A DNA stretch of 64,000 nt from positions 7,208-71,207 of the forward strand of contig CAWVFN010000061.1 of NCBI GenBank assembly GCA_963928475.1. Reading direction: 5' to 3'. Positions 12,037 through 31,189 of the stretch are shown here, piece by piece. The translations under genes and the position numbers were made by a program. This DNA comes from Bacillota bacterium (GTDB lineage Bacteria > Bacillota > Dehalobacteriia > UBA7702). How positions within the stretch are numbered: position 1 is the stretch's first letter; each line of letters begins with the position of its first letter. A model generated the notes under the pieces. That model had not been told where the DNA came from, did no database searches, and saw only the letters and a list, made by a program, of their open reading frames with translations.

Positions 12037-12143
12037 ATATTCAACTTATAGTTGTTTTCAAGAAGATTATTTTTGCTTACCCAGGGTGAGTATGATTATA
12101 AAATTATATTTTTTATAAATTATTGGGAGAGGAGTGTTATATA

Positions 12144-13586
12144 ATGTTAACACAAGAAGTAAAGTATTTGACACCTGAACAAAGACAAAGCGTTCATGAA
12201 GCTTCCATGCAGGTTTTGGAAGAAACCGGTCTTTTAGTCCATAATGAAAAGGCCAGAGAAATATTTAAGGAACATGGCTGCGATGTTGACGCTGAAGGTC
12301 ATGTAAAAATTCCCCATAAGGTAATTGAAGAAAAAATTAAATATTTCCAGCCTTCCTATACCTTTACCGCTCAGGATCCTGAATTTGATATTACCATTCC
12401 CGAAGAAGGCCCCTGTGTTGTAACAGCTAGCTCCGCGCCTTTCGTACTCGATCCTAAAACTAAGGAACAACGCCGTGCTACTTCTAAAGATATCGCTAAC
12501 ATTGCGTATCTTATTAATGAGCTCCCCGGCTTTAATGTATTTTCCATTTCTACTTTGGCTGATGATGCTCCTGAAGGTCAGTTCACTTTATCCAGATTCT
12601 ATCCTGCCTTGAAGAACTGCAAAAAACCTGTTCGTTCCAACACTGTTAATATGAAGGACTTAATGACCTGCTTGGAACTGGGTTATACTATTGCTGGCAG
12701 TGAAGAAGCTTATATGGAACGCCCCTTCATTAACCATCATTATTGCCCTGTGGTTTCTCCTCTGACCATGGATGTTGAATCCACTGAAGCTGTTACTTAT
12801 TTGGCACAAAAAGGTCTTCCTGTATACACCACAGTTGTTCCCAATGCTGGTATGACCTCTCCTATGAGTATGGTCGGTACTTTGGTAGTTGGCAACGCTG
12901 AATTCTTAGCTATCAACTGCTATTATCAGATGATTCGTGAAGGTATGCCTATTATCTATGCTTATCTCCCCACTGTTGCTGATATGAGAACTGGTAACTA
13001 TACTCCTGGTGCTGTTGAAACCGGTATTTTGGAAATGGCCCACACTGAAATGGCTGAATTCTACGGTGTTCCTTCCGGCGGTTACATTGGCTTGACCAAT
13101 GCTCACTGCAATGACGCTCAGAATGGTTATGAAGTAGCTCTTAATACTACTGGTGCTATGTTAGCTGGCGCTTCCCTCTTGAACATGGGTGGTCTTATCG
13201 ACAGCCTTACCACTTTCGATTTTGCTAAAGCTATCATCGATAATGAAGTAGCTATGAGCTTAAAGAGAATGAAACGTGGTATGGATTATGATGAAGCCGA
13301 CTTGAAAGAATGCATCGGTTTGATTGATAAGATCGGACCTGGTGGTCTTTACATGTCTGAAGAACATACCTTCAGAAATATGAAATCTATCGCTTATCTT
13401 ACTAATATTGGTTCCAGAGACGCTCGTGCTCAGTGGGATGGCAGACCCATCGAAGATAGATGCTATGACAAAGCTGACGAACTTCTCAGCAAACCCAATC
13501 CCGCCAGATTCTCTGACGAACTTGATGCTAAGATCAAAGCTAACTTCCCCGGTATTGTTGCTGGTGACGCTGTTTGGGATTATTAA
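12144..13586 (+). CDS. MttB-superfamily corrinoid methyltransferase without an amber codon (non-Pyl type, as in the quaternary-amine methyltransferases MtgB/MtcB/MtpB).
   Basis: Full-length 480 aa TIM-barrel MttB-like sequence (LTPEQRQSVHEASMQVLEETG...) with no in-frame TAG. SD GGGAGAGGAG upstream of ATG 12144. Confidence 0.8.
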   Translation: MLTQEVKYLTPEQRQSVHEASMQVLEETGLLVHNEKAREIFKEHGCDVDAEGHVKIPHKVIEEKIKYFQPSYTFTAQDPEFDITIPEEGPCVVTASSAPFVLDPKTKEQRRATSKDIANIAYLINELPGFNVFSISTLADDAPEGQFTLSRFYPALKNCKKPVRSNTVNMKDLMTCLELGYTIAGSEEAYMERPFINHHYCPVVSPLTMDVESTEAVTYLAQKGLPVYTTVVPNAGMTSPMSMVGTLVVGNAEFLAINCYYQMIREGMPIIYAYLPTVADMRTGNYTPGAVETGILEMAHTEMAEFYGVPSGGYIGLTNAHCNDAQNGYEVALNTTGAMLAGASLLNMGGLIDSLTTFDFAKAIIDNEVAMSLKRMKRGMDYDEADLKECIGLIDKIGPGGLYMSEEHTFRNMKSIAYLTNIGSRDARAQWDGRPIEDRCYDKADELLSKPNPARFSDELDAKIKANFPGIVAGDAVWDY

Positions 13587-13629
13587 TTTTCAAAGATGCT
13601 CCCTATTAGGAGCACAAAATAAAAGAACA

Positions 13630-13668
13630 AAGGCGCGCGTGTGTAAATCACGCGCGCCTTTCCTTATT
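13630..13668 (+). terminator. Rho-independent terminator AGGCGCGCGTG-tgtaaat-CACGCGCGCCT followed by TTTCCTT.
   Basis: GC-rich 11-bp stem. Confidence 0.7.
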
Positions 13669-13902
13669 GGTGAATTATTTATCTAATTAAAACAAATTTT
13701 ATTTATATAAAAATAAAAAATTTCCGGTATAATTTATTTTTGTCTTGGGTGCTCCCATAAGCAGGGGGAATAGTTTCTATGAGGAAAAATGCCAGTTTAT
13801 GGTGGTTTTATCCCTGAATTTAGCGATTGACAAAACAGTCATTTAAGGGTATGATTAAGTCGTATAGAAAGGTATTTTTTAACTGTTGGGGGTAAGAGAG
13901 TA

Positions 13903-14800: not shown

Positions 14801-15160
14801 GTGGTTTACGACGGAGATGCCAATGAAGGCAAACAACGTGTTATACAGGAATATGTTCCTGGGAAGCAGGTTACGCTTTTACATGTTATCGCCCAACCAG
14901 TTGACGATGTTTACGATAAGTTAGGTTTGCCCCATGACGGGGCTATAGGTATTTTGACCTTAACTCCTGGTGAAACCGCGATTATTGCCGGAGATATAGC
15001 CACAAAGGCCGGGGAGGTACGCATTGGTTTTTTAGATCGTTTTACCGGCGCGCTGACAATTACCGGTGATGTGGCAAGTGTAACGACATCCTTAAAGGCC
15101 GTAAATGAGTATCTGGAAACAGTATTAGGATATTCTCCGGCGCCGCTGACTAAATCATGA
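14801..15160 (+). CDS. eutS: EutS/PduU-type circularly permuted BMC shell protein.
   Basis: RVIQEYVPGKQVTLLHVIAQP...GILTLTPGETAIIAGDIATKAG matches E. coli EutS nearly residue for residue. GTG start. Confidence 0.85.
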   Translation: MVYDGDANEGKQRVIQEYVPGKQVTLLHVIAQPVDDVYDKLGLPHDGAIGILTLTPGETAIIAGDIATKAGEVRIGFLDRFTGALTITGDVASVTTSLKAVNEYLETVLGYSPAPLTKS

Positions 15161-15600
15161 AGAAACGCATTATGGTTGTGGGTCCGGTAGGAACCGGCAA
15201 ATCAACTTTGTTGCATACCCTTTATCATGGTAAAGGGGTAACTAAGACCCAGAGCTTGGAATTTGAGGCCAATTCTATTGATACTCCGGGAGAATTTGTG
15301 GAAAATCCATTTTATCATCATTGTCTTTTTGCCACGGCTTTAGAAGCGGATCTAATCATTTTTTTGCAGGATGCCACAATTGATCGTCTTTTGTTTCCGC
15401 CGGGGTTTGCTACGGGATTTCCCAAGCCCTCTATTGGTGTAGTGACTAAGATTGATAAGGAAGGCGCCGATGTAGATAGATCAATATCTATTTTAAAGAC
15501 TCTGGAAACAACGGAAGATGTGTATATTCCAATTTCTTCTGTTACTGGTGCGGGCCTTGAAGAATTAAGAGAATTTGTTGAGAATTTTTTTAGCGAATAA
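15157..15600 (+). CDS. eutP: EutP/PduV-family small GTPase.
   Basis: P-loop GPVGTGKST and DTPGE motifs. 147 aa. Confidence 0.85.
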   Translation: MKKRIMVVGPVGTGKSTLLHTLYHGKGVTKTQSLEFEANSIDTPGEFVENPFYHHCLFATALEADLIIFLQDATIDRLLFPPGFATGFPKPSIGVVTKIDKEGADVDRSISILKTLETTEDVYIPISSVTGAGLEELREFVENFFSE

Positions 15601-15667
15601 TTAGTGTTTATAAATTTATCTTTTATATATTTATTAATACAGTAACCACGATTAAGGAGGTTTAAGA

Positions 15668-17026
15668 ATGAAGCTAAAAGCTAACGTCTACGGCACAGTT
15701 TTTACTTTTAAATCTGTGGCAGAGGTTCTGGCCAAGGCTAATGAAGTTAAAGCCGGCGATACCCTTCAGGGTGTGGCAGCGGAATCTCAGACCGAGAGAG
15801 TTGCGGCAAAGTTAGTACTCAGCCGCCTGACTTTGGAGGATATTTACGAAAATCCAGTAATTCCCTATGAAAAGGATGAAGTTACCCGTATCATCTATGA
15901 TGATATTAATAAATCTACTTATAATAAATATAAGAATTATACTATCGGCGCTATCCGTGAGTTTGTTCTTTCCCAGCCTGAATATGAAGTTCTCAAACTG
16001 GGCCGCGGCATGACTTCGGAAATGATTGCCGGTGTTGCGAAGATCATGAGCAACATGGACTTGGTAGCTGCCGCTTCCAAGCTCCGTCCTACCAGCCGCT
16101 GCAATACCACTATGGGTATAAAAGGCACGATTGCTTACAGAAATCAGCCTAACCATACTACCGACGATGTCAATGGTATTATGGCTTCTATGAAGGAAGG
16201 TTTTACCTATGGTTCCGGCGATGCTGTCATTGGTATTAACCCGGTAGAAGATAATCCGGAAAATACAGCTTATTTGTTAAAAACAGCCCATGAATTTATG
16301 GAAAAATGGGAAATTCCTACCCAGGCTTGTGTTTTAGCCCATGTTACCACTCAGATGAAGGCTCAGGAATTAGGCGCTCCTATCGATGTTTTCTTCCAAT
16401 CCATTTCTGGTACCCAAGCTACCAATGAAGCCTTTGGTATTGACGCCGCTCTCCTCAGCGAAGCTAGAGAAGCCGCTCGTCTTGGCGGGACAAGCTTAGG
16501 ACCTAATTTCATGTATTTTGAAACAGGTCAGGGTTCCGAGTTATCTCTGGAAGGCGATGAAGGCGTTGACGAAATGACTTTGGAAGCCAGAACCTATGGC
16601 TTTGGCCGTCACTTCCAGCCTTTTATGGTAAACAATGTATCCGGTTTTATTGGACCTGAAACTATTTATGATGGACGTGAAGTTGTCCGGGCCGACTTGG
16701 AAGACTTGTTTATGGGTAAACTTCATGGTCTGCCCATGGGTATCGCTCCCTGTTATACCAATCACATGAACGCTGACCAGAACGACCAAGAAAACGGTAC
16801 CATGCTTTGTGCCATGGCTGGTTCCTTCTATTTCATGGGCGTACCCGGCGGCGACGATGTTATGCTGAACTATCAGGATACCAGTTACCATGATGACGCC
16901 ACTGTCCGTGAGGTTTTAGGTTTACGTCCCTTGCCTGAATTTGAAAAATGGATGGAAAAAATGGGCTTAATGGAAGACGGCCATCTCACTCCCATTGCCG
17001 GTGATCCGTCTATCTTTGATAAATAA
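15668..17026 (+). CDS. eutB: Ethanolamine ammonia-lyase large subunit.
   Basis: MKLKANVYGTVFTFKSVAEVLAKANE...SGD..QGVAA aligns with EutB along its full length. 452 aa. Confidence 0.95.
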   Translation: MKLKANVYGTVFTFKSVAEVLAKANEVKAGDTLQGVAAESQTERVAAKLVLSRLTLEDIYENPVIPYEKDEVTRIIYDDINKSTYNKYKNYTIGAIREFVLSQPEYEVLKLGRGMTSEMIAGVAKIMSNMDLVAAASKLRPTSRCNTTMGIKGTIAYRNQPNHTTDDVNGIMASMKEGFTYGSGDAVIGINPVEDNPENTAYLLKTAHEFMEKWEIPTQACVLAHVTTQMKAQELGAPIDVFFQSISGTQATNEAFGIDAALLSEAREAARLGGTSLGPNFMYFETGQGSELSLEGDEGVDEMTLEARTYGFGRHFQPFMVNNVSGFIGPETIYDGREVVRADLEDLFMGKLHGLPMGIAPCYTNHMNADQNDQENGTMLCAMAGSFYFMGVPGGDDVMLNYQDTSYHDDATVREVLGLRPLPEFEKWMEKMGLMEDGHLTPIAGDPSIFDK

Positions 17027-17035
17027 TGGAGGTGA

Positions 17036-17935
17036 ATGAAGGTGCCAGATTATAATAACGAAATGGAAAGAAAGATAGTCGAGTCGGTACTTGCCGAATT
17101 ACGTAAAAATGGCGGTGCTACTCCTCAGACTACAGTTAGCATAAATACTCCAAGCTCCGGCTCAGTTTTCGATGATGGTGTTATCGAGCTCCCGGACATC
17201 AGTGTTCCCATGGTTGATAATCCCTATAATCAATCCTCTTTGGAAGCTATGAAGAGAATTACTAACGCTCGTATCGCTTTGGGACGTTGCGGAACCAGAC
17301 AGAAAACAGATCCTCTTATCCGTTTCTTGGCTGACCATGCCGCGGCTCGCGACGCTGTTTTCCTTGATGTTAGTGAAGACTTTCTGAAAAACAACAATTT
17401 GGAAATAGTGACAACTGAGGCCGCTACTAAAGAACAATTCCTGACAGAACCTAACCGTGGTACCGTCTTAAGCGCTGATGGCAGACGTATATTAAACCAG
17501 GTTTGCAAAAAGGGTGTACAGGTACAGATCATTGTTACCGATGGTTTGAGTTCCAGAGCTATTGAAAGAAATATTGAGGATATCATGCCTCCTCTTCTCA
17601 ATGGTTTGCAGGGTCTTGGCGTTACTGTAGGAACCCCTGTTTTCATTAAGAACGGCCGTGTTCGTGTAATGGATGACGTGGGTATGGAATTAGGCTGTGA
17701 TGTGGTAGTAAACCTCATTGGTGAAAGACCTGGTCTTGGTACTGCCAGCAGTATGAGCGCTTATCTTATTTATAAACCTACCAAGGATACAGTGGAAGCT
17801 GACAGAACTTTGATTTCCAATATTTATAAGGGTGGTACTCCTCCGGTAGAAGCTGGCGCTCAATTAGTTGAATTGATTAAAAATATTCTTAAACATAAAG
17901 CCAGCGGTGTTAAACTTAATGAGCTGACTAAATAA
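17036..17935 (+). CDS. eutC: Ethanolamine ammonia-lyase small subunit with an N-terminal amphipathic helix (encapsulation-peptide-like).
   Basis: Conserved RIALGRCGTR and ERPGLG motifs. N-terminus is MERKIVESVLAELRK. Confidence 0.9.
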   Translation: MKVPDYNNEMERKIVESVLAELRKNGGATPQTTVSINTPSSGSVFDDGVIELPDISVPMVDNPYNQSSLEAMKRITNARIALGRCGTRQKTDPLIRFLADHAAARDAVFLDVSEDFLKNNNLEIVTTEAATKEQFLTEPNRGTVLSADGRRILNQVCKKGVQVQIIVTDGLSSRAIERNIEDIMPPLLNGLQGLGVTVGTPVFIKNGRVRVMDDVGMELGCDVVVNLIGERPGLGTASSMSAYLIYKPTKDTVEADRTLISNIYKGGTPPVEAGAQLVELIKNILKHKASGVKLNELTK

Positions 17936-17960
17936 ATTTTATTTAAGAGTTTAGGGAAAG

Positions 17961-19439
17961 GTGGTGTTTGCCATTAGCGTAGCTGAACAAAAGATTATAA
18001 GCGTTGGCATTGATATTGGTACCACCACAACCCAATTAGTTCTCAGTCGTTTAACTGTAAGGAATTCCGCTCCCGCCTCAGTAATTCCCCATATGGAGAT
18101 TTCCGACAGGGAAGTGCTTTACCGCAGTGATATTCATTTTACACCCATTGATGATCATTTGCTTATTGACGCAGAGGCGGTGGCTGATATTATTGCTGAA
18201 GAGTACAAGCGGGCCGGAATGAATCCCTGGGATGTAGAAACCGGAGCTGTAATTATTACTGGTGAAACCGCCAAAAAGGAAAATGCGGCTAATATATTGG
18301 AATCAGTTTCTGAATATGCCGGCGATTTTGTGGTAGCTACCGCCGGAGTTAATTTGGAATCTATTCTAGCCGGACGCGGTTCCGGTGCCGCGGGATTTTC
18401 CGAGGAGCATCATAAAGTGTACGCCAATATAGACGTAGGCGGCGGTACCGCTAACATAGGTGTTTTTGAGGGTGGCAGAGTCATAGATGCAGCTTGTATC
18501 AATGTAGGCGGTCACCTTATCGAGTTTGAGAAAGGCGGCGATACTATAACGTATGTCGCCCCTCCGGCTCAGCGGGTACTGAACCATTTAGGCTTGGATT
18601 TACAGATAGGCCAAAAGGTCACCCAGAAACAGCTGATAACTGTAGCGGAAACCATGGCTGACCTCTGTGTGGAATCCATCGTTCAGCGTACTCCCGGCTC
18701 TCTCTTGACAGAGCTTCTGATGACCCCGGCTTTGAAAACTGATTATGAAATATATGAAGTTGTGATTTCCGGCGGGGTAGCGGATTATGTATACAGCGAC
18801 TTTGAACCTGTTTCTATCTCTGAGATGACTCAATACGGCGATATAGGTCCCGTTCTTGGCTGGGCATTACGGCGGAAATTTAAGGAAGCCGGAGTATCCT
18901 TAGCCAAGCCCTTGGAAACTATTAGGGCAACAGTAATCGGGGCTGGTATCCACTCTATGAACATCAGCGGCAGTACCATTCATGTTGATGAGGAAACATT
19001 GCCTTTAAAAAACATTATGGTATTATCTCCCTTTGCCAAGGGTAATATGCCAGATGACATTCAAGTTATAGCTCAGACTATTAAAGAGCATGTAGGGCGC
19101 ATCAGCAGTGAAGATCCAGATAAAATGCTGGCTATATATATTGATGAACCCGCAGATGTTACATATAAAGCCATACATGATTTGGCAAAAGGAATTTGCG
19201 ATGGTATGGCGGAATACTTAAGATATAGGGCCGTACTGATAGTTGTATTAGGCGCTGACTGCGGCAAGGCTTTAGGTCAGTGTTTGGAAATAGAGACCAA
19301 TCATCATGTTGAATTGGTTTGTGTAGACCAGATCCAAGTTGACGAAGGCGACTACATAGATATAGGCAGTCCCATTATGGGCGGGCGGGTAGTCCCAGTA
19401 GTTGTAAAGACTTTGGTGTTTGATAAAGGAAACAATTAA
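17961..19439 (+). CDS. eutA: Ethanolamine ammonia-lyase reactivating factor EutA.
   Basis: SVGIDIGTTTTQLVLSRL actin-fold ATPase motif. 492 aa. GTG start after AGGGAAAGG. Confidence 0.9.
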   Translation: MVFAISVAEQKIISVGIDIGTTTTQLVLSRLTVRNSAPASVIPHMEISDREVLYRSDIHFTPIDDHLLIDAEAVADIIAEEYKRAGMNPWDVETGAVIITGETAKKENAANILESVSEYAGDFVVATAGVNLESILAGRGSGAAGFSEEHHKVYANIDVGGGTANIGVFEGGRVIDAACINVGGHLIEFEKGGDTITYVAPPAQRVLNHLGLDLQIGQKVTQKQLITVAETMADLCVESIVQRTPGSLLTELLMTPALKTDYEIYEVVISGGVADYVYSDFEPVSISEMTQYGDIGPVLGWALRRKFKEAGVSLAKPLETIRATVIGAGIHSMNISGSTIHVDEETLPLKNIMVLSPFAKGNMPDDIQVIAQTIKEHVGRISSEDPDKMLAIYIDEPADVTYKAIHDLAKGICDGMAEYLRYRAVLIVVLGADCGKALGQCLEIETNHHVELVCVDQIQVDEGDYIDIGSPIMGGRVVPVVVKTLVFDKGNN

Positions 19440-19452
19440 GGAGGTAAAATAA

Positions 19453-20115
19453 ATGGCACTATTAGATCCTGTAAAACCGAAAGTGTTATCCACAAAATTC
19501 ATTCCCAGTGTGGCTACGGATTTAAGAAAAGACTTGGGCATGACAGACTATGAACAAAGTATTGCCATGTTCACCTGTGATATCGATGATTGCGCGTATA
19601 CGGCCATCGATGAAGCTACTAAAAAAGCGGAAGTTAGGGTTGTTTACGCGAAATCCTTCTATGCTGGCGCCGCTCATTCTTCCGGTCCTCTTTCCGGTGA
19701 ATTTATTGGTATTTTAGCCGGTCCCAATCCTGCTGAAACCAAGGCCGGCCTCAATGCGGCCGTTCAATATTTAGCGGAGGAAGCATGGTTCTATTCTGCC
19801 GATGATAACGACAGCATAGTATATTTTGCTCATACAATTTCTCGTACTGGCAGTTATCTTTCTGAATGCGCCGGAATTCCGGAAGGTCAGCCTTTGGCCT
19901 ACTTGATCGCTCCTCCCATTGAAGCGGTATTCGGCGTTGATGCCGCCATCAAAGCGGCTGATGTAACTATGCCTTTGTGGTATGGTCCTCCTACAGAAAC
20001 TAACTTTGGCGGAGCTCTCTTAACAGGTAGTCAAAGTGCTTGTAAAGCCGCGACGGAAGCTTTTAGAGACGCTGTTATCGCTGTGGCCAGAACTCCCCAT
20101 GACTTTGATCTTTAA
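19453..20115 (+). CDS. eutL: EutL tandem-BMC-domain (pseudohexameric, BMC-T) shell protein.
   Basis: VVYAKSFYAGAAHSSGPLSGE...GPNPAE aligns with EutL. 220 aa. Confidence 0.9.
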   Translation: MALLDPVKPKVLSTKFIPSVATDLRKDLGMTDYEQSIAMFTCDIDDCAYTAIDEATKKAEVRVVYAKSFYAGAAHSSGPLSGEFIGILAGPNPAETKAGLNAAVQYLAEEAWFYSADDNDSIVYFAHTISRTGSYLSECAGIPEGQPLAYLIAPPIEAVFGVDAAIKAADVTMPLWYGPPTETNFGGALLTGSQSACKAATEAFRDAVIAVARTPHDFDL

Positions 20116-20170
20116 TTGAATCATCAGCGATTCTTAAGATTTTAGATTTTAGGAAGGGAGGTAAGATAAT

Positions 20171-21223
20171 TTGAAAGTAGTAACCGAAGCTGAATTACGT
20201 GACATATATAAAAAGGCACCCTTTACCTCCTTTGATTTGCCTTCCGGCATGAAATTGACTCCTGCCGCCTCCCAATTTTTGAGCGAACGTAAAATACGAG
20301 TTTTGCGCGATGGTGTTTCCGAAAGTCAATTAGCCCAGGAAGACCGGCGCTACAATATATCGGCGCCGACTCCGGCTTATCCTAAAGTGCCGCCGAAGCC
20401 TCAGCCTTTATCCGCCGGTAACTTCTCTAATAGTGGCAATGTGGTAATAACGGAAAGCTCACCGCCTGTAACTCAGGTTAACAATGGATATCAGCAGCCA
20501 GTGATACAGCAATACCAGCAGCAGGTGGAGCAAAGTCAAGCTCCCCAGCAGTTCGGGGTTCCTGCGTCCCAGAATACAGTCGTAAGTGAACCGCAGTCCC
20601 AGACTATAGTAACCCAAGGAGGAAACAATAATACTATGGGTGGCAATGTCATGGCTAATGATACTACCGTTCAAAATATGGACAGATCCCATGTAAACAC
20701 TGAGAAACCTGAACATATGACCCATTTACGCGGTGCCGAACTGGTACCCAAAACTCATCCGATGATTGCTTTTAGAGGCCAATTGGATATATTTGAGGGT
20801 GTTGTTCTAAAAGGAATTATCAGTGCGGAAAATGATGGTTTTAAAGGTTTAGCTCGGGATTTAACTGAGTTATTAGAATGCTCTCGTAAAATAATGCGGG
20901 CTGAAGTCCGTCAGGAGCCTTTGGAGCCTATCAATATCTGTGGTTGGGATGCGGCGGAAATAAGAGACCGCTCTCATTATCCCAATAAATATTACGATGC
21001 TAACCACTTTACTCCCCAGCCTGAGCACGGTAAAATTATGGCGGAACTAAACTATATGCGCGCCGTGGCCAGACAAATGGAATTAGCTGCCGCCCATGCT
21101 TTTTATAAGGAAGACGGCAGTACGGACAGAGATGATATACTTCAGGCTGTAAACCGTTTCAGCAGTGTGATATATGTATTTATGCTGCAGCTGCTGGGAG
21201 GAGTTTATAAGTATGGATGTTAA
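20171..21223 (+). CDS. eutT: EutT-type ATP:cob(I)alamin adenosyltransferase with an expanded Q/P-rich linker of about 100 aa.
   Basis: The N-terminus (VVTEAELR...LTPAASQFLSERKIRV) and C-terminus (HMTHL...NRFSSVIYVFMLQLL) match E. coli EutT. The middle is a low-complexity Q/P/N insertion. TTG start. Confidence 0.75.
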   Translation: MKVVTEAELRDIYKKAPFTSFDLPSGMKLTPAASQFLSERKIRVLRDGVSESQLAQEDRRYNISAPTPAYPKVPPKPQPLSAGNFSNSGNVVITESSPPVTQVNNGYQQPVIQQYQQQVEQSQAPQQFGVPASQNTVVSEPQSQTIVTQGGNNNTMGGNVMANDTTVQNMDRSHVNTEKPEHMTHLRGAELVPKTHPMIAFRGQLDIFEGVVLKGIISAENDGFKGLARDLTELLECSRKIMRAEVRQEPLEPINICGWDAAEIRDRSHYPNKYYDANHFTPQPEHGKIMAELNYMRAVARQMELAAAHAFYKEDGSTDRDDILQAVNRFSSVIYVFMLQLLGGVYKYGC

Positions 21224-21235
21224 TATGGTGATAAT

Positions 21236-22105
21236 GTGAAAGAATTAAAAGAGGCTAATGCCTTAATTGCGGCTTACGATAAAACTTTCAAAAAGCCGAA
21301 AAAGGCAGCTAAAGGGAAAAAAATATATACCGGGGTGGACTTGGGCACAGCCTACATTGTTCTGGCAGTTGTTGATGAGGACGGCACTCCCTTAGCCGGA
21401 GCCATGGAATTTGCGGAAGTTGTGAAAGACGGTTTAGTCGTTGATTATAACGGCGCTATGCAAATTGTGAAAAAGCTGAAGCATCAAATTGAGGAATCCA
21501 TAGGCGCTGAGCTTGAAATTGCCGGTGTAGCCTATCCTCCTGGTACGAATTCCGGAGATTGCCGCGCTATACGTTATGTGGCCGAGGCCTGCGGTTTCCA
21601 TGTAGAATACACCATGGATGAACCTACAGCGGCCAATAATGTCCTCAATATAGAAAACGGCGCGGTTGTTGATATCGGCGGCGGTACCACAGGTATAGCG
21701 GTGCTGAAAGAGGGCAAAGTCGTATTTGTCGATGACGAACCCTCCGGCGGTACCCATTTAAGTTTGGTAATAGCCGGCGCTAAAGGTATCAAATTCTTAG
21801 AAGCTGAAGAGCTGAAAAAGGATAAAGCGGAACATAAAGAACTTATGCCCCTGGTAAGACCTGTTTTTGAGAAAATGGGCAGTATAGTTAGGCGCTGTAT
21901 AGAAGGATATCAAATAGATACTATCTATCTTGTTGGCGGTACCTGCTGTTTTGAAGGGGTAGAGAAAGTATTGCAAAAACAGCTTAAAACAACAGTTGTT
22001 AAACCTGATAATCCCATGTTAGTTACTCCCTTGGGTATTGCTCTCGGCAGTATGAAGCAAGGTCAGGCGGAGGAAAGCTATTATGACGATGATTACGATT
22101 ATTAA
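21236..22105 (+). CDS. eutJ: EutJ (actin/Hsp70-fold chaperone-like protein).
   Basis: GVDLGTAYIVLAV and DIGGGTTGIAV phosphate-binding motifs. 289 aa. GTG start. Confidence 0.85.
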   Translation: MKELKEANALIAAYDKTFKKPKKAAKGKKIYTGVDLGTAYIVLAVVDEDGTPLAGAMEFAEVVKDGLVVDYNGAMQIVKKLKHQIEESIGAELEIAGVAYPPGTNSGDCRAIRYVAEACGFHVEYTMDEPTAANNVLNIENGAVVDIGGGTTGIAVLKEGKVVFVDDEPSGGTHLSLVIAGAKGIKFLEAEELKKDKAEHKELMPLVRPVFEKMGSIVRRCIEGYQIDTIYLVGGTCCFEGVEKVLQKQLKTTVVKPDNPMLVTPLGIALGSMKQGQAEESYYDDDYDY

Positions 22106-22120
22106 GAAAGGACTGAGGCC

Positions 22121-22420
22121 ATGAAAATCGGCAGAGTAATCGATAATATCTGGGCAACCAGAAAAGAAGAAACTTTGCGCAGTACGAAGCTGATGATCGT
22201 TCAAGTGCTGGATACACCGGCAGATTTGGAAAATCCTGCTAATAACGGCGGTAAGGTACTGATAGCTGCTGATATTATCGGGGCTGGAATAGGTGAATTA
22301 GTAATCGTAGTTGGCGGCAGTTCCGCACGTCGGGCAGGCGGTTATGACAGCAATGTTCCCGTTGACGCTATGATTGTCGGTATAATAGATGAAAACGAAT
22401 GGGGTAAAACTAAGGAGTAA
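22121..22420 (+). CDS. eutN: EutN/CcmL/PduN pentameric vertex protein (BMC-V).
   Basis: 99 aa. The MKIGRVIDNIWATRK...KLMIVQ pattern is typical of BMC-V. Confidence 0.85.
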   Translation: MKIGRVIDNIWATRKEETLRSTKLMIVQVLDTPADLENPANNGGKVLIAADIIGAGIGELVIVVGGSSARRAGGYDSNVPVDAMIVGIIDENEWGKTKE

Positions 22421-22423
22421 GCT

Positions 22424-23758
22424 ATGACCCAAGATATTATTAAAAAAATTAGAGATGCCGGGGTCGTAGGTGCGGGTGGCGCAGGCTTTCCCAGCCATGT
22501 AAAACTTGCGGCTCAAGCGGAAGTGGTTGTCACCAATGGCGCGGAATGTGAACCTCTGCTCCGAGTTGACCAGCAACTTATGGTTGTACGCGCCGAAGAA
22601 ATGGTGCATGGTTTGGAGTTGGCGGTTTCCGTTACTGGTGCCAAAGAAGGTATTATAGCTATTAAAGGTAAACATAAAGAAGCTATAGCCACTTTGCAAA
22701 AAGCTATTGCCGGAAAAGATAATTTACGTATTCATATTTTGGATGACTTTTATCCTGCCGGTGATGAACCTATTACCCTTTATGAATCTACTGGTCGTTT
22801 AGTTCCCCAAGGCGGTATTCCTATCGCAGTAGGGGCAGTAGTAACCAATACTGAAACATTAATCAATATCTGTAATGCCGAAAAAGGAATCCCGGTAACG
22901 GATACTTATATCACCCTATGCGGTGCCGTGCCTAAGCCAGTAACGGTAAAAGTGCCGGTAGGTATCACAGTACGGGAAGCCTTTGCCTTAGCTGGTGTTA
23001 AAGATTTCAGTAATTACGGTATAATAGACGGCGGTCCTATGATGGGCGGACTTTTGGAGGATGTCGATACTCCGGTAGCGAAAACATCTAAAGGCTATAT
23101 CCTGTTGCCTAAGGATCATAAGCTGATTACAAAACGGAGTATGGAGATGTCCACTATCACCAGACAGGCCCAGGCAGCTTGTATACAGTGCCGTATGTGT
23201 ACAGATCTTTGCCCCCGCTATCTGATTGGACATCATATTGAGCCTCATCTCATAATGCGAGCTTTAAAATATGGTGAAAACGCGGTAGAAACTTTGAGAA
23301 TGGCTTTTGCTTGTTCTGAATGCGGTATGTGCGAACAGTTCTCCTGTCCAGCAGATATTTCTCCCAGAACAGTGAATGCTAATATGAAGAAAATTCTGTC
23401 GGAAAAAGGTATTAAGCCTCTTGATCCTCCGACGGATCAAAAAGTTAATAAAAATCAGACCAGCAGAAAAGTACCTTCCAAACGTGTGGTCAACCGCATT
23501 GGTCTGGCTCGTTATGATAAAGACGCTCCCCTGGAAGAATTAACAGTTACTTATAAACGCGTAACGATTCCCTTAAAACAACATGTTGGCGCTCCCACCC
23601 AGCCCATTGTTAAAGTTGGTCAGAGTGTTAAACGCGGTGATATTATCGGCGAGGTTCCGGAAAAAGCCTTAGGGGCTCCGGTACACGCCAGTATAGACGG
23701 TGTGGTAGAAGCCATTACCGATAAGGGAATAATTATTAGTCAAGGGGGTGTAAGCTGA
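22424..23758 (+). CDS. PduS-like RnfC-family flavo-iron-sulfur oxidoreductase (putative cobalamin reductase).
   Basis: GAGGAGFPSHVKL NADH-binding motif and two Cx2Cx2Cx3CP 4Fe-4S motifs. 444 aa. Confidence 0.75.
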   Translation: MTQDIIKKIRDAGVVGAGGAGFPSHVKLAAQAEVVVTNGAECEPLLRVDQQLMVVRAEEMVHGLELAVSVTGAKEGIIAIKGKHKEAIATLQKAIAGKDNLRIHILDDFYPAGDEPITLYESTGRLVPQGGIPIAVGAVVTNTETLINICNAEKGIPVTDTYITLCGAVPKPVTVKVPVGITVREAFALAGVKDFSNYGIIDGGPMMGGLLEDVDTPVAKTSKGYILLPKDHKLITKRSMEMSTITRQAQAACIQCRMCTDLCPRYLIGHHIEPHLIMRALKYGENAVETLRMAFACSECGMCEQFSCPADISPRTVNANMKKILSEKGIKPLDPPTDQKVNKNQTSRKVPSKRVVNRIGLARYDKDAPLEELTVTYKRVTIPLKQHVGAPTQPIVKVGQSVKRGDIIGEVPEKALGAPVHASIDGVVEAITDKGIIISQGGVS

Positions 23759-24306
23759 TGATAAGAGCTATAGGTTTGGTAGAATTTACCAGTATAGCAA
23801 GGGGTATAGAGGCTGCCGATGCCATGCTGAAAGCCGCCACAATCGAGCTTTTAGACGCTAAACCAATTTGCCCTGGTAAATATATAGTGTTAATTTGCGG
23901 TGATGTAAGTGCCGTAGAGAATTCCGTCAGAGCCGGTAAAAATATCGGTGAAGGTTGCGTAGTAGATGATTTCGTCATCCCCAACGTACACCCCTCGGTA
24001 ATAAAAGCTATTTCCTGCTCTACAATGGTATATGATTTAGAGGCATTAGGTGTCATTGAATCTTTTGCCATTGCTTCCCTGATAGTCTCGGCTGATGCCG
24101 CGGTAAAAACAGGTGAGGTTGAGTTGATTGAAGTAAGAGTAGGCATGGGTATTGGCGGAAAATCCTTTGTTACCCTTACAGGCGATGTCGGTGCTGTAAA
24201 ATCGGCTATTAACGCTGGTTCCCAGGCTTGCCGGGAAAAAGGTATGTTAGTAGAAACAGTAGTAATACCTTCGCCGCATAAAGAGTTAAAGAATTCAATT
24301 TTATAA
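23758..24306 (+). CDS. PduT-like tandem-BMC-domain shell protein, with a Cys in the ICPGK loop that may ligate an Fe-S centre.
   Basis: Two BMC domains in 182 aa. The MIRAIGLVEFTSIARGIEAADAMLKAA...PICPGKY stretch aligns with PduT, including the Cys38-equivalent residue. Confidence 0.8.
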   Translation: MIRAIGLVEFTSIARGIEAADAMLKAATIELLDAKPICPGKYIVLICGDVSAVENSVRAGKNIGEGCVVDDFVIPNVHPSVIKAISCSTMVYDLEALGVIESFAIASLIVSADAAVKTGEVELIEVRVGMGIGGKSFVTLTGDVGAVKSAINAGSQACREKGMLVETVVIPSPHKELKNSIL

Positions 24307-24355
24307 CATTTAAATTTAATATTAAGATTTTTAGAATTTGAGGAGGTGAAAAGAT

Positions 24356-25396
24356 TTGACGAAGAGACTTATTTCTGTACTTGATATCAAAACCTTGTTT
24401 GAACAAGGTCAGAAAGAACTTTGCCTGGATGATGACGCTATTGTAACTCCGGCGGCTAGAGATACCGCTGTTGAATATGGCATTAAAATACAAAGAGGCG
24501 GTATAGTACCTTGTACAGCCACTGTAGCACCGCCAGTTCAAGTTACTCCTGTAGCTCAGCCGGCTCCTGTGGTTACCGCCGCTCCTGCCGTACAACCTTA
24601 CCAGGCTTCTCCTGCGGCTTCACCGGTGGTAACAGCTGGCCCTATAGTAAACCGTTCTCAGGCGGTTTCCCCAGCGACAAAATGTCCGCCGGTACCTGGT
24701 TATAGGGAAGATAATACTTTAATTACTTCTCCCTGGCCGGAACTGAAGCCCATTCCCTGTTCGGTTGCTACCCAATCGACTCCTTCAGCTCAAACTGTTC
24801 CCTGGCCTAAAGCTAATCCTGTGGCCTTCCAGGCTATTGCCGGCGGCAATGGTCCTGTGACTCCCCAGGCAGCACCTGCTCCTGTAGTATCTAATAATCA
24901 GAATGCTGCTCAAGGTGTTGACAGCGATCTGGTAGCTCAGATTGTGCAGCAGGTTATGCAGCAGATGAATGGCGGTCAATGTGCCGCTGCTCCCTGTCCC
25001 CAAGCTGATTTAGTTAGAGCTATTGATCCAGAAACCGGCTTTATGCTTATCAAAGGCAACAGCATAAAGATGGATGTCTTTAATGACGGTGAAAAGGATC
25101 GTCCTGGCGTTTACATTAAAGAACTGACTAATCCACAGGAAAGTCCTAACATGACTTCAGGTTTCATGGCTTTAGATCACTCTGATCTTACCTGGACTTT
25201 GACCTATGATGAAATGGATTACGTAATTGATGGTACTCTGGAATTTATTGTTAACGGTAAAAAATATACAGGGCTCCCTGGTGATGTGTTCTACATCCCC
25301 GCCAATACTACAGTAACCTTCACAACACCTGATACTACAAAGTTCTTCTTTGTAACTTATCCTGCTAACTGGGCTGAACTCAGTGGCGCTAAATAA
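24356..25396 (+). CDS. eutQ: EutQ (cupin-fold acetate kinase) with an expanded P/A/V/Q-rich linker of about 150 aa.
   Basis: The N-terminus (LISVLDIK...IVTPAARDTAVEYGI) and the C-terminal cupin (FMALDHSDLTWTLTYDEMDYVIDG...GDVFYIP) match EutQ. TTG start after AGGAGGTG. Confidence 0.8.
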   Translation: MTKRLISVLDIKTLFEQGQKELCLDDDAIVTPAARDTAVEYGIKIQRGGIVPCTATVAPPVQVTPVAQPAPVVTAAPAVQPYQASPAASPVVTAGPIVNRSQAVSPATKCPPVPGYREDNTLITSPWPELKPIPCSVATQSTPSAQTVPWPKANPVAFQAIAGGNGPVTPQAAPAPVVSNNQNAAQGVDSDLVAQIVQQVMQQMNGGQCAAAPCPQADLVRAIDPETGFMLIKGNSIKMDVFNDGEKDRPGVYIKELTNPQESPNMTSGFMALDHSDLTWTLTYDEMDYVIDGTLEFIVNGKKYTGLPGDVFYIPANTTVTFTTPDTTKFFFVTYPANWAELSGAK

Positions 25397-25451
25397 AGTA
25401 TAACAATTTATCTATTAAAATAATTGATTTGATAAACAGGAGGAATTTTAA

Positions 25452-25736
25452 ATGACTAATATCGCATTAGGAATGATCGAAACCAAAGGTTTAGTTGGCT
25501 CCATTGAAGCGGCTGATGCCATGGTTAAAGCAGCGAACGTAACTTTGATTGGTAAAGTACATGTTGGCGGCGCTTATGTAACTGTTATGGTTCGTGGCGA
25601 TGTTGGCGCTGTTAAAGCCGCTACTGACGCTGGTGCCGCTGCTGCTCAGAGAGTCGGTGAACTCATTTCCGTACACGTAATTCCCAGACCCCATTCGGAA
25701 GTGGAATACATCTTGCCTAAACTCGGTGCTGAATAA
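25452..25736 (+). CDS. eutM: BMC-H hexameric shell protein (EutM/PduA type).
   Basis: 94 aa canonical BMC domain ([27 protein letters not shown]). Confidence 0.9.
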
Positions 25737-25768
25737 GATATCGATTTATTAGGTAAGGGGTTGAGATT

Positions 25769-26404
25769 ATGAATGGACAAAATATAGCCTTAGGCATGAT
25801 TGAAACCAAAGGCTTAGTCGGTTCTATTGAGGCCGCTGATGCCATGGTCAAGGCAGCCAACGTAACTTTGATTGGCAAAGTCCATATTGGCGGCGCCTAT
25901 GTGACTGTTATGGTTCGTGGTGATGTCGGCGCTGTTAAGGCCGCTACTGACGCTGGTGCCGCTGCCGCGCAAAGAGTCGGCGAACTTATCTCTGTTCACG
26001 TAATTCCCAGACCCCATTCGGAAGTAGAATTTATTCTGCCTTCTCTAACTTTTGATGATGAGGATGATACTCCTTCTCCACCGGATGACGGTGGGGAAGG
26101 GGAAACCCCTGATGAATCTGAAGATAGGGAAGAAACTCCCGCTCCTGATGAGACCTCTGAAAACTCTTCCCAGGAAGAGGAAAAAGACGTCTCAGCGGTT
26201 GAAAAAGATGAAGCTGAAGCTGAGGAAATAACCGCTCAGGAACTATCCGTCAGAGCCGAGTTAGAAGGAATGGCGGTCAAAGAATTAAGGAAAATAGCTC
26301 GTCAGACCGAGGGAATCGGTATAATGGGGAGAAAGATTTCCGTAGCCAATAAGAGTCTTCTGATTCAGGAGATTACTAAAGCCAGATTGAATAAAGCAAA
26401 ATAA
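25769..26404 (+). CDS. BMC-H domain fused to an acidic disordered linker and a C-terminal SAP/Rho-N-like helix-extension-helix motif (EutK-like shell protein).
   Basis: The first 85 aa are about 97% identical to the preceding EutM. They are followed by a D/E/P/S-rich stretch and then [35 protein letters not shown], which matches the ELxxlAxxxGIxGxSxMRKxxLIxxI pattern of the Rho N-terminal / SAP domain. Confidence 0.7.
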
Positions 26405-26509
26405 GGCTTGTATAATTTAGCTTAATTTAGCATGAAAGTGCTAAGTTCTATTTAGTATACCTAATTTTGGTGTATGCGGAGATATTTTATACGAAAGGGG
26501 GACTAACTT

Positions 26510-27973
26510 TTGACTCTCGATTACGATTTAAGAATAATCCAGGAAACAAGGGATTTAGCTCGTAAAGCCAAAGAAGCCCAGGCTATACTTGCCACTTTCT
26601 CTCAGGAAAAATTGGATGAGATAGTGAAAGCTATGTCTGAAGCTGTAATCGCCAATGCTGAATGGTTGGCAAGGATGGCTTGCGATGAAACAAAATATGG
26701 TATTTATGAAGATAAAGTTATCAAAAATACCTTTGCTGCCAGAGAAGTTTATGAATATATTAAAGATATGAAAACTACGGGCTTCATTAAAGAGGATCCC
26801 GTAAATAAAATTTACGAATACGCTATGCCCGTTGGTGTTATTATGGGTATTATTCCCACAACTAACCCCACCTCCACCCTTATCCATAACGCTATGTGCG
26901 CTGTTAAGAGTGGTAACGCCATAGTATTTTCACCCCATCCCAACGCGGTGAAATGTTCAGTTGCTTCCGCCCAGGTTATGATGGACGCTGCGGCGAAAGT
27001 TGGCGCTCCTGACGGCATTATCAGCTGTCTGACCAAGGTAAGTATGGAAGGTGCCGATGCTCTGATGCATAACGATAATATTGATGTTATCGTTGCTACC
27101 GGCGGCCCCGGACTGGTAAAATCCGCTTACAGCGCTGGTAAACCCGCTTTAGGTGTTGGTGCTGGTAACGTACCTGCTTTTATCGAACGTACAGCTAATG
27201 TTAAGAAAGCCGTTCATGATATTGTTACCAGTAAGACCTTTGATAATGGTATGATTTGCGCTTCTGAACAAGCGATTATTGCTGACTTGCCTGTAAAGGA
27301 TCAAGTTGTGGCGGAATTGAAGGCTCAGGGTTGCTATATCATGAATGAGGAAGAATCCGATAAGGTAGCTAAACTCATCATGACTCCCACCAATGGTATG
27401 AATGCGGCTTATGTAGGTAAAACCGCTTGTTATCTGGCGGAACACGCTGGTATTAATGTTCCCGCCGGTACCAAGCTTCTTATCGCGCCTATGGACGGTT
27501 ATGGTAAAGAGTATCCTCTTTCCCATGAAAAGCTTACCACTGTTTTGGGCTTCTATTGTGTTAAGGATTGGCATGATGCCTGCGAACTGTGCAGAGGTCT
27601 TCTCAGCATTGGCGGTATTGGTCACTCTCTGGTTATTCACAGCCAGGATGATACTATTATCCGCAAATTTGCTGAAAAACCTGTATCCCGTATTTTGGTC
27701 AATACTCCTGGTTCTCTTGGCGGTATTGGCTATACCACCAGTATTTCTCCTTCTCTCACTTTGGGTTGCGGTACTTGTGGCGGCAGCAGTCTCGATGAAA
27801 ACCTTACTCCTTTGCACTTGATCAATGTTAAAAAATTGGCTTATGGTACCTGTGATGCCAATTTTGCCCCGGCTGAAACCAGCGCTCCTGCTGCGCAGCC
27901 TAATTGCGGAGCTACCGCTGATGTTATCACTGACGTTGTTAAACAGGTGTTAGCCCAGCTGCAGTCCCGGTAA
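26510..27973 (+). CDS. eutE: CoA-acylating acetaldehyde dehydrogenase EutE.
   Basis: Aldehyde dehydrogenase fold with the catalytic Cys in NGMICASEQ. 487 aa. TTG start. Confidence 0.85.
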   Translation: MTLDYDLRIIQETRDLARKAKEAQAILATFSQEKLDEIVKAMSEAVIANAEWLARMACDETKYGIYEDKVIKNTFAAREVYEYIKDMKTTGFIKEDPVNKIYEYAMPVGVIMGIIPTTNPTSTLIHNAMCAVKSGNAIVFSPHPNAVKCSVASAQVMMDAAAKVGAPDGIISCLTKVSMEGADALMHNDNIDVIVATGGPGLVKSAYSAGKPALGVGAGNVPAFIERTANVKKAVHDIVTSKTFDNGMICASEQAIIADLPVKDQVVAELKAQGCYIMNEEESDKVAKLIMTPTNGMNAAYVGKTACYLAEHAGINVPAGTKLLIAPMDGYGKEYPLSHEKLTTVLGFYCVKDWHDACELCRGLLSIGGIGHSLVIHSQDDTIIRKFAEKPVSRILVNTPGSLGGIGYTTSISPSLTLGCGTCGGSSLDENLTPLHLINVKKLAYGTCDANFAPAETSAPAAQPNCGATADVITDVVKQVLAQLQSR

Positions 27974-27985
27974 GGGGTGATTAGC

Positions 27986-28639
27986 ATGAATGAACAGGAT
28001 TTATCGGCTTTGATCGCTAAATTAGTTAAAGAACAGCTAGATAAGGCAATGCCGGCGGCGGAAGCTAATATGGTTCCCGTTGGTATTTCCAATCATCATA
28101 TTCATCTTAGCCAGGAAGATTTTGAGACTCTTTTTGGTAAAGGGGCGACGATGACCCATTTTAAGGATCTTTCTCAGCCAGGTCAATTTGCCTGTAAAGA
28201 GGTTATGACCGTGGTTGGTCCTGGCGGTGCTATTGAGCGTGTTCGTCTTTTAGGACCTGCCAGAAAGCAAAGCCAAGTGGAAGTTTCCGTGGCAGACTGC
28301 TTTAAATTGGGGATTCAAGCTCCCTTACGTGATTCAGGAGATCTAACAGGTTCTGCTGGTGTGACACTTGTTGGTCCTAAGGGAAGTGTCACCTTGGATG
28401 AAGGCTGTATTATCGCTATCAAGCATATTCATATGCACACCAGCGACGCCGCAAGACTTGGTTTAAAGGATAAGGACAAGGTCAATGTTAAGACCTGTAC
28501 ACCTCGGGGCATCATCTTCCTGGAAGTTTTGATTCGTGTCAGTGATAATTTCAAACTGGAAATGCACGTTGATATGGATGAAGCCAATGCCGCGTCTTTA
28601 AAGAATGGCGATATGGTGCAGATAATAGGCAAATGTTAA
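27986..28639 (+). CDS. pduL: PduL-type phosphotransacylase with an N-terminal encapsulation-peptide-like helix.
   Basis: Two PduL repeats (GISNHHIHLSQEDF and IAIKHIHMHTSDAARLGL). N-terminus EQDLSALIAKLVKEQL. ATG 27986 follows AAGGGG; the ORF-track start is GTG 27977. Confidence 0.8.
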   Translation: MNEQDLSALIAKLVKEQLDKAMPAAEANMVPVGISNHHIHLSQEDFETLFGKGATMTHFKDLSQPGQFACKEVMTVVGPGGAIERVRLLGPARKQSQVEVSVADCFKLGIQAPLRDSGDLTGSAGVTLVGPKGSVTLDEGCIIAIKHIHMHTSDAARLGLKDKDKVNVKTCTPRGIIFLEVLIRVSDNFKLEMHVDMDEANAASLKNGDMVQIIGKC

Positions 28640-31137: not shown

Positions 31138-31189
31138 CCTTTCTTTGGGTTGCTTTCCCAATGTAAATTTTTTAGTACCTGTCATGGTA

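Follow-up and report, generated by a model that had tools for sequence, protein, structure and literature searches.

An EUT2D-type ethanolamine microcompartment operon encodes a shell protein with a predicted helix-extension-helix tail, a candidate tether to nucleic acid

The window, by which we mean the whole 64,000-nucleotide stretch of Bacillota DNA that was analysed, contains an ethanolamine microcompartment operon. Its genes run in the order EutS, EutP, EutB, EutC, EutA, EutL, EutT-like adenosyltransferase, EutJ, and EutN, followed by PduS, PduT, EutQ, a BMC-H gene, a fusion of BMC-H to a helix-extension-helix (HeH) domain, acetaldehyde dehydrogenase, and PduL. The operon, two marker genes beside it, and the individual features considered here are as follows.

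8745..10067, + strand: PF01636 (APH) kinase-family gene, EUT2D marker (APH 4.9e-17)
12123..13586, + strand: non-pyrrolysine MttB-family methyltransferase homolog, EUT2D marker (PF06253 8.7e-74)
14801..28639, + strand: EUT2D-type ethanolamine microcompartment operon, whole (Pfam and NCBIfam scans; matching order in related genomes)
22424..23758, + strand: PduS-type Fe-S flavoprotein, 444 aa (Complex1_51K 1.5e-44, RnfC_N 1.9e-16, Fer4_17 3.4e-15)
23758..24306, + strand: PduT-type tandem-BMC (BMC-T) shell protein (two BMC domains, 4.7e-50)
24356..25396, + strand: EutQ cupin (EutQ Pfam model on residues 189-341, 1.7e-32)
25452..25736, + strand: BMC-H (H1), 94 aa, major ("basal") hexamer type (BMC 2.6e-28; NCBIfam EutM 1.1e-37)
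25769..26044, + strand: BMC domain of the fusion (H2), residues 1-92 (BMC 9.8e-28, residues 7-82)
26045..26224, + strand: acidic disordered linker of the fusion, residues 93-152 (charge count; pLDDT 49-60)
26225..26404, + strand: predicted C-terminal HeH (Rho-N/SAP-like) domain of the fusion, residues 153-211 plus stop codon

The original prediction, made from the sequence alone, had called this shell and redox module unusual for holding PduS- and PduT-like genes in a eut operon. All five genes of the module lie at the coordinates first given. PduS and PduT have the domain architectures expected of them, but PduS in eut loci is a catalogued hallmark: among eut locus types, it is encoded only by EUT2B and EUT2D, the latter additionally having a PF01636 kinase and an MttB homolog (Axen 2014, Text S1). 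The window has EutABC, a PduL-type phosphotransacylase and a PduS homolog, and the kinase and the MttB homolog (PF06253) lie within the locus or next to it. A second APH (PF01636) match lies at 7385-8353, and the ORF at 10272-11393 had no Pfam match. Most of these genes (EutABC, the PduL-type phosphotransacylase, PduS, the PF01636 kinase, and the MttB homolog), along with EutJ, EutP, and EutT, are shared with the EUT2D locus type, found for example in Thermincola potens JR. The fusion family described below is also represented in the T. potens JR genome. The window may depart from EUT2D as catalogued (Axen 2014): where that type has a PocR-domain regulator in place of a two-component system, the upstream ORFs scanned gave no PocR match and a sigma-54/PAS activator lies upstream (3942-5465), and the operon shows no acetate kinase gene. 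Among the genomes fetched, the identical gene order recurs in about 27 other species genomes, mostly Peptococcaceae-like. Because EUT2B and EUT2D are catalogued, a model named "eut_PduT" already exists in NCBIfam, and the gene order recurs in this way, the locus is not unusual, and the impression that PduS and PduT are an oddity in a eut operon has to be corrected; a gene order already common and catalogued had been named by the original prediction as its own refutation. This stretch holds the shell and redox genes of a catalogued EUT2D-type ethanolamine microcompartment operon, from a gut Peptococcaceae-like bacterium.

Within this part, the PduS-type product carries Complex1_51K, SLBB, Fer4_17, and RnfC_N in the order of the PduS architecture in Pfam, with SLBB falling just under its threshold (1.1e-4, 22.4 vs 27 bits). 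The PduT-type product has the tandem BMC fold and matched PDB entry 3nwg at 7e-73. When aligned to Citrobacter freundii PduT (3pac) and to 3n79, it keeps the ICPGK motif and, within PICPGKY, the pore cysteine Cys38, so the Fe-S-ligating residue predicted from the sequence is conserved. TIGR02526 "eut_PduT" was its best NCBIfam model and covered the full length, at 137 bits against an equivalog cut-off of 250.3. PduS and PduT are the usual Fe-S redox pair of EUT2D, with presumed roles in reducing corrinoid and in passing electrons across the shell. EutQ here includes a low-complexity linker as well as about 185 aa of N-terminal sequence; a common encapsulation motif in the N-termini of EutQ and the adenosyltransferase was considered and dropped, as BLASTP found no similarity between them.

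The two BMC-H genes downstream are nearly the same in protein but not in DNA. H2 scored 96.4 bits as a single BMC domain (PF00936; cut-off 24.5), and both paralogs have the KAAN and PRPH motifs (VKAANV, IPRPH). They are identical at 86 of 90 aligned residues and at 84 of 86 in the core (97.7%), while their DNA is 85.2% identical with differences almost all at third codon positions, in agreement with the 97% and about 85% first estimated and with the mostly synonymous changes noted then. The corresponding rates are dN 0.0105 and dS 0.79 (NG86). Across 12 genomes, the H1 core protein sequence is invariant and the protein identity of H1 and H2 within a genome ranges from 96.5 to 100%. Judged from these substitutions, the pair is under strong purifying selection, as had been proposed. 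Recent duplication, as a source of the identity, was rejected because dS is 0.79 and orthologs are closer to each other than paralogs. Plain retention of an ancestral sequence was likewise rejected, since distant EUT2D loci carry divergent pairs: there the neighboring BMC-H shares only 55-77% identity with the BMC domain of the fusion, and H2 of the window is about 90% identical to their first gene and about 57% to their fusion gene. From these comparisons we infer an ancient swap, in which the BMC domain of the fusion gene was replaced by one of the major-hexamer type, a refinement of the original prediction that makes the near-identity of H1 and H2 derived.

The fusion itself (25769-26404) is a protein of 211 aa, composed of the BMC-H domain, an acidic linker of about 60 aa and a basic HeH domain of about 50 aa. 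The acidic stretch described earlier is borne out by the count of 27 D/E against 3 K/R in the 60 residues from 93 to 152 (net charge about -25). Residues 160-211 have 12 K/R against 5 D/E, and the tail in the window has a net charge of about +6 to +7. In the AlphaFold2 model, pLDDT is about 97 for the BMC domain, 49-60 for the linker, and 93.8-97 for the C-terminal domain, with C-terminal helices at 156-166, 170-179, 188-192, and 195-210.

We evaluated the resemblance of this domain to Rho-N and SAP using sequence profiles and structure comparison. Rho_N (PF07498) was the best Pfam match of the isolated tail, covering profile positions 1-41 of 43 (E 0.022), but at 15.1 bits it stays below the gathering threshold of 24.9, and a scan of the full-length protein gave no Rho_N match. 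Of 96 homologs, nine matched Rho_N with E<=0.01, and the strongest of these matches reached 1.3e-5. Using hhalign, the tail aligned in register with residues 3-44 of Escherichia coli Rho (E 0.03), the N-terminal helix bundle; a profile of 69 tails had no match among PDB sequences. Two helices with an extended loop that superpose on the fold are found in the AlphaFold2 model (pLDDT 93.8), and the top Foldseek matches of this model were all Rho, at a TM score of 0.70 and a non-significant E of about 1. The tail domain is confidently predicted to be a helix-extension-helix of the Rho-N/SAP/LEM fold class. Of the motif first proposed, the fold stands as a model and in the homologs that match Rho_N, whereas membership of Rho_N does not extend to the window tail under the Pfam threshold. 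Compared with Rho_N, the inter-helix loop is about five residues longer and has its own conserved motif, G-x-x-I-x-G-R-E-I-S-K-A-N-K, and the domain sits at the C-terminus of a shell protein rather than at the N-terminus of a helicase.

A word-indexed search had returned one relative and made the fusion tail appear rare; its gene looked split, but the split proved to be an assembly artefact with an N-gap and a Nextera adapter remnant. The appearance of rarity was overturned by an exhaustive HMM search, which placed the tail in 142 clusters (50% identity); a BMC domain is present in 105. By a locus search with a 10-sequence tail alignment, the tail is encoded in at least 144 species genomes, and because it is conserved in so many, it is not a chance feature. 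The invariant tail positions in the family are L-R...R...G-R. Fusions were found in EUT2D, glycyl-radical and fragmented (FRAG-like) shell loci of several phyla, and, against the view that such a fusion is unusual, the family is large and has members in several BMC types. In the literature we searched, there was no description of a microcompartment shell protein with a Rho_N, SAP, or helix-extension-helix domain. The BMC-H-HeH fusion is, then, apparently both widespread and undescribed.

We propose that the fusion, incorporated in shell facets, may tether the organelle to nucleic acid on its cytosolic side (nucleoid DNA, perhaps RNA), a reading based on analogy with EutK and one that we consider evenly balanced between right and wrong. 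The fusion has a BMC domain matching that of the major hexamer and would for this reason slot into shell facets and, by analogy, possibly into mixed hexamers. In solved shell structures, the concave face of BMC-H bears both termini and points outward to the cytosol, and therefore the linker arm and the HeH domain would project outward from the shell. The HeH domain could then bind a polyanionic partner in the cytosol, most probably nucleoid DNA and possibly RNA, and such binding would space and partition the organelles, the role assigned to EutK in Salmonella. Selection on the tail, as seen in its 142 clusters, its at least 144 species genomes, and its invariant residues, argues for this reading, as does the basic character of the tail, which is net positive in 82% of the family and has conserved Arg/Lys positions. 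Against it count the sub-threshold Rho_N score, the lack of a PDB match for the 69-tail profile, and the 18% of tails that are not clearly basic. RNA binding in Rho, moreover, is chiefly the work of the OB fold and not of the N-terminal helix bundle, and the linker, at its net charge, could neutralise or mask the HeH domain.

HeH domains may also bind proteins, as LEM does BAF and the SAP domain of MANF does BiP. The tail could be a protein-protein adaptor recruiting a cytosolic partner such as a positioning ATPase, the EutP/PduV GTPase, or the Hsp70/actin-like EutJ. The EUT2D and glycyl-radical loci bearing the fusion do encode EutJ and EutP, but neither is found within 10 kb in the 48 FCB-group loci that have it. 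In structure, the domain most resembles parts of proteins that handle nucleic acids, and the conserved Arg/Lys and net positive charge suit a polyanion. We consider an adaptor unlikely.

We see somewhat less chance still that linker and tail form an electrostatic or steric brush, which would prevent aggregation or tune shell assembly, with the domain serving as a cap or as a fold-back partner of the acidic arm. The acidic linker adjoining a basic domain in the window, its predicted disorder, and the acidity of half of the family linkers are consistent with a brush. Yet the linkers vary from 9 to 231 aa in length and from -76 to +10 in charge, while the conserved part is the 50-aa domain with its invariant residues, and a brush alone needs no conserved fold. 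A tail in the lumen, acting like an encapsulation peptide as a cargo scaffold or recruiter, is very improbable: an organising role has been discussed for C-terminal extensions of shell proteins, and EutQ and the adenosyltransferase of this operon carry long linkers themselves, but BMC-H termini lie on the cytosol-facing side, the domain is folded, polar, and basic rather than being an amphipathic helix, and EUT2D, glycyl-radical, and FRAG-like loci have no common cargo.

To our knowledge, EutK and PduK alone have been implicated in the spacing and inheritance of catabolic microcompartments. A compact and conserved Rho-N/SAP-like domain with four invariant residues, on a flexible arm, is a concrete and easily testable candidate for this role, and it occurs on the hexamers of several microcompartment types that are unrelated to each other, FRAG-like shells among them. 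Extending the nucleic acid tether in this direction, the HeH tail might be a built-in nucleoid (or RNA) anchor on the shell exterior, which positions and inherits organelles without a ParA-type ATPase (the operon showed no ParA-like gene). Such an anchor would serve at least three microcompartment classes (EUT2D, glycyl-radical, FRAG-like) in Bacillota and the Bacteroidota/Ignavibacteriota group, as a counterpart of EutK with an unrelated fold. This wider proposal is tentative, and we regard it as rather doubtful in full.

EutK is the best functional model for the fusion because its deletion mislocalises organelles to the poles. In Salmonella, Eut microcompartments are static at the poles when eutK is deleted, and the basic C-terminal domain of EutK has been proposed to bind nucleotides (PMC12487888). 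Like the fusion, EutK of Salmonella and E. coli (EUT1) joins a single BMC-H domain through a flexible linker to a small, basic, helical domain whose fold class is of the nucleic-acid-binding kind, and both are encoded in an ethanolamine operon. The suggestion of a possible EutK analogue is thus reasonable in architecture, with tails unrelated in sequence. EutK_C (PF16365) did not match the fusion tail at E<=10, and the NCBIfam EutK model (NF012010) aligned only at positions 4-89 of 166, the BMC part, with 74.5 vs 218 bits; EutK is absent here. The tails are non-homologous and differ in fold, being helix-extension-helix in the fusion and helix-turn-helix in EutK, and the linker is strongly acidic only in the fusion. 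The fusion has a BMC domain of the major-hexamer type, whereas EutK behaves as a monomer in vitro (PMC12058022).

PduK and CmcE are, like the fusion, accessory hexamer proteins whose C-terminal arm is disordered. PduK influences where Pdu organelles lie in the cell (PMC12487888), and canonical and C-terminally extended BMC-H proteins form mixed hexamers in the PduJ/PduK and CmcA/CmcE pairs (PMC12058022). The extension of PduK has a Cys-rich putative Fe-S motif and no HeH domain, and it is unrelated in sequence to the tail of the fusion. In carboxysomes, the McdA/McdB system ties the shell to the nucleoid and so provides for organelle spacing and inheritance. That system consists of two proteins, a ParA-type ATPase and a separate adaptor, whereas in the fusion the putative DNA-contacting module is part of the shell protein.

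ORF listing together with Pfam/NCBIfam scans delimited a single plus-strand eut operon at 14801-28639 and confirmed the coordinates and gene descriptions of the original prediction.

Genes of the eut operon, in order
First gene, +, EutS, shell protein
Second gene, +, EutP, GTPase
After EutP, +, EutB and EutC, ethanolamine ammonia-lyase
After EutC, +, EutA, reactivase
After EutA, +, EutL, shell protein
20171-21223, +, EutT-like adenosyltransferase with a long Q/P-rich linker
After the adenosyltransferase, +, EutJ, Hsp70/actin-like
After EutJ, +, EutN, shell pentamer
22424-23758, +, PduS, four-domain architecture (Complex1_51K, SLBB, Fer4_17, RnfC_N)
23758-24306, +, PduT-like tandem BMC protein, PDB 3nwg match at 7e-73
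24356-25396, +, EutQ
25452-25736, +, H1, BMC-H of 94 aa
25769-26404, +, H2, BMC-H with tail, 211 aa
Downstream of H2, +, acetylating acetaldehyde dehydrogenase
Downstream of H2, last listed gene, +, PduL

The PduT-like protein keeps the ICPGK cysteine when aligned to Citrobacter PduT. In both the adenosyltransferase and EutQ, an N-terminal stretch of ~45 aa is joined to the catalytic domain by a low-complexity linker of 120-140 aa rich in Q/P/A/V; BLASTP found no similarity between the two N-termini.

Comparison with the catalogued EUT types matched the operon to EUT2D, an ethanolamine microcompartment locus type. PduS is encoded by EUT2B and EUT2D loci, EUT2D loci have a PF01636 kinase and an MttB homolog (PF06253) as extras, and the Thermincola potens EUT2D locus also encodes EutJ, EutP, EutT, and PduL (Axen et al., 2014, PMC4207490). 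The window carries exactly these extras, with an MttB homolog at 12123-13586 and PF01636-family genes at 8745-10067 and 7385-8353, and NCBIfam includes a model named eut_PduT. The order EutB-C-A-L, adenosyltransferase, EutJ, EutN, PduS, PduT, EutQ, BMC-H, BMC-H with tail, aldehyde dehydrogenase, PduL was found in about 27 further species genomes among those fetched, a count from the species-representative genome scan that includes both the full order and the order cut at contig ends. Carriers belong to Peptococcaceae, Clostridia, and Desulfitobacteriaceae and include Candidatus Formimonas warabiya, Dehalobacterium, and Desulfitispora; the nearest genome is DXZC01000054.1, a human-gut Peptococcaceae MAG. 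Because the locus type is catalogued and its gene order recurrent, the claim of an unusual operon fails: the PduS/PduT genes and their arrangement are those of a known locus type.

The region upstream of the operon (3942-14541) encodes a sigma-54/PAS activator, a choline/ethanolamine-kinase-like gene (7385-8353, minus strand), a PF01636 kinase, a non-pyrrolysine MttB homolog, and a HAD phosphatase; two ORFs at 10272-11667 had no family match. As a set, these genes could act as a route that feeds in methylated or phosphorylated ethanolamines. A further MttB-family methyltransferase gene (5659-7170, plus strand) has an in-frame TAG at 6655-6657, exactly at the start of an Rfam PYLIS_3 element (6655-6754), which indicates that the enzyme contains pyrrolysine and hence that the organism decodes UAG as pyrrolysine. 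Near the left window end, a large serine recombinase (863-2308, plus strand; Resolvase, Recombinase, and Zn_ribbon_recom) is a possible border marker of a mobile element. About 11 kb downstream of the eut operon, the opposite strand encodes a second EutB/EutC pair (39958-42225, minus strand; phmmer E 3.6e-185 and 3.4e-74), an arrangement also seen in five relatives (L009-L011, L014, L015). A T-box leader (31237-31479, minus strand, 94.9 bits) precedes genes for a PLP-dependent enzyme (29764-31185) and an ABC substrate-binding protein. Local G+C peaks at 0.54 in 52001-54000, against ~0.42 elsewhere, and no Rfam families were found in that segment.

The tandem BMC-H genes bore out the predicted purifying selection without recent duplication. 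Over an 86-codon core, H1 and H2 differ at two amino acids and at ~13% of nucleotides (dN 0.0105, dS 0.79), and within 12 genomes of the window clade the paralogs are 96.5-100% identical in protein and 81-91% in DNA. Comparison of the window with its nearest relative puts orthologs (H1-H1 93%, H2-H2 88%) closer together than paralogs (84-87%), and the pair is therefore older than the species split. The H1-type and fusion genes are only 51-77% identical in more distant EUT2D-type and in all Bacteroidota/Ignavibacteriota loci. The near-identity of the two BMC domains is derived: the window H2 domain is ~90% identical to the first gene of distant loci and only ~57% to their fusion gene, so the original fusion domain was replaced by an H1-type domain in the clade ancestor. 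The S/H residue in RPH[S/H]EVE co-varies between the paralogs in almost every genome (one exception, L007, has A in H1 and H in H2), a sign of some concerted evolution. The tandem pair is thus a clean example of purifying selection, made more interesting by the ancient replacement of a domain.

The H2 tail comprises an acidic linker (residues 93-152, 27 D/E vs 3 K/R, predicted disordered, pLDDT 49-60) and a terminal domain (residues 153-211) with pLDDT ~97 in the full-length AlphaFold2 model and 93.8 when folded alone. Foldseek returned Rho for all top matches (query-normalised TM 0.70), with E-values not significant for a domain so short. Rho_N was the top Pfam match of the isolated tail (E 0.022, profile positions 1-41 of 43), but its 15.1 bits fall short of the 24.9-bit threshold; SAP and EutK_C were unmatched. 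When the tail family was compared by hhalign with E. coli Rho residues 1-67, Rho residues 3-44 aligned in register (E 0.03, loop five residues longer). The Rho-N/SAP-like tail is real, and its reading as a helix-extension-helix (HeH) domain is supported by the predicted fold and only marginally by sequence.

A word-indexed search with the tail found one relative only, the orthologous fusion gene in DXZC01000054.1 (L001). It is called as two ORFs of 150 aa and 77 aa, a split that we rejected as a gene-caller artifact because ten N's followed by TATAAGAGACAG, a scaffold gap and Nextera adapter remnant, lie inside the gene (5525-5545). Searching 1.84 billion representatives exhaustively with an HMM recovered 142 tail clusters at E<=1e-3, 105 of which had an N-terminal BMC domain and the tail match at the extreme C-terminus; the remaining clusters look mostly like fragments. 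Among 96 full-length members, L173, R174, R178, and G187 are invariant and V170, A177, R188, I190, S191, A193, and L198 nearly so (consensus L-E-x-M-x-V-x-E-L-R-x-L-A-R-x-x-x-G-x-x-I-x-G-R-E-I-S-x-A-N-K), and Pfam Rho_N was detected in nine at E<=0.01. Linker length varies between 9 and 231 aa, with half of the linkers acidic, and the tail carries a net positive charge in 82% of members. Public records label members only as "BMC domain-containing protein", "microcompartments protein", or "EutM"; the family to which H2 belongs is widespread and has no name in databases. The HeH domain also occurs occasionally outside shell proteins: in the metagenome proteins P0136 and P0093, as read from the sequence by eye, it follows an L21-like N-terminus in one and sits between a membrane anchor and an apparent SPOR-type C-terminal region in the other.

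One peptide pattern alone identified the fusion in at least 144 species genomes, and the 80 loci that we fetched fell into three contexts. The first is EUT2D-type operons. The second is loci in Lacrimispora, Hungatella, and a Paenibacillaceae-labelled MAG, which are GRM1-like because they encode a PFL-like glycyl-radical enzyme and activase, an Fe-alcohol dehydrogenase, and two aldehyde dehydrogenases. In the third (48 loci within L016-L078, from Bacteroidota, Ignavibacteriota, Fidelibacterota, and Rhodothermaceae), the BMC-H and BMC-H-HeH pair lies amid conserved housekeeping genes, with RelA, RuvX, and amylase upstream in Ignavibacteria, and a YbbR-like gene (26 of 48) and PdxJ (30 of 48) downstream. 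Almost no other shell genes or pathway enzymes were found within 10 kb of these pairs; the exceptions are L069, with EutN, PduS, and PduT directly downstream of the fusion, and L041, with an EutN-like ORF ~7 kb upstream. This context matches the dispersed "FRAG" shells reported in Ignavibacteriae and related phyla, in a study that also noted BMC-H proteins extended at the C-terminus by as many as 200 residues, which cluster in the tree, and nothing further on them (Sutter et al., 2021). In the long-read MAG locus L057 (6618-7647), four ORFs make up a fragmented PduS, which probably reflects indel errors rather than a pseudogene.

Beyond the demonstrated domain architecture, predicted fold and structural neighbours, conservation and charge, and spread across cargo-unrelated loci, we propose how the family may act. 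H2 would be incorporated into shell facets because it has a BMC domain of the major-hexamer type, and its tail would be displayed outward because BMC-H termini in solved shells lie on the concave, cytosol-facing side. The HeH domain would bind a polyanion, most likely nucleoid DNA, and so space and partition the organelles. Alternatively, it could be an adaptor for a protein such as EutJ; binding to Hsp70 nucleotide-binding domains is known for some SAP domains. An electrostatic brush and a luminal scaffold are the other rival roles for the tail.

Mixed hexamers of canonical and C-terminally extended BMC-H proteins are known for PduJ/PduK and CmcA/CmcE (PMC12058022). Polyanion binding and spacing draws its strongest support from analogy with EutK, which is absent from the window operon: in Salmonella, Eut organelles stay static at the poles once eutK is deleted, and the authors proposed that its basic C-terminal domain is a nucleotide binder acting in a ParB- or McdAB-like manner (PMC12487888). 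In the searchable literature, no paper linked microcompartments to Rho_N, SAP, Rho termination factor, or helix-extension-helix. H2 is a shell hexamer whose C-terminus bears an accessory domain. In architecture it is like EutK, but its tail has a different fold and is unrelated to EutK_C.
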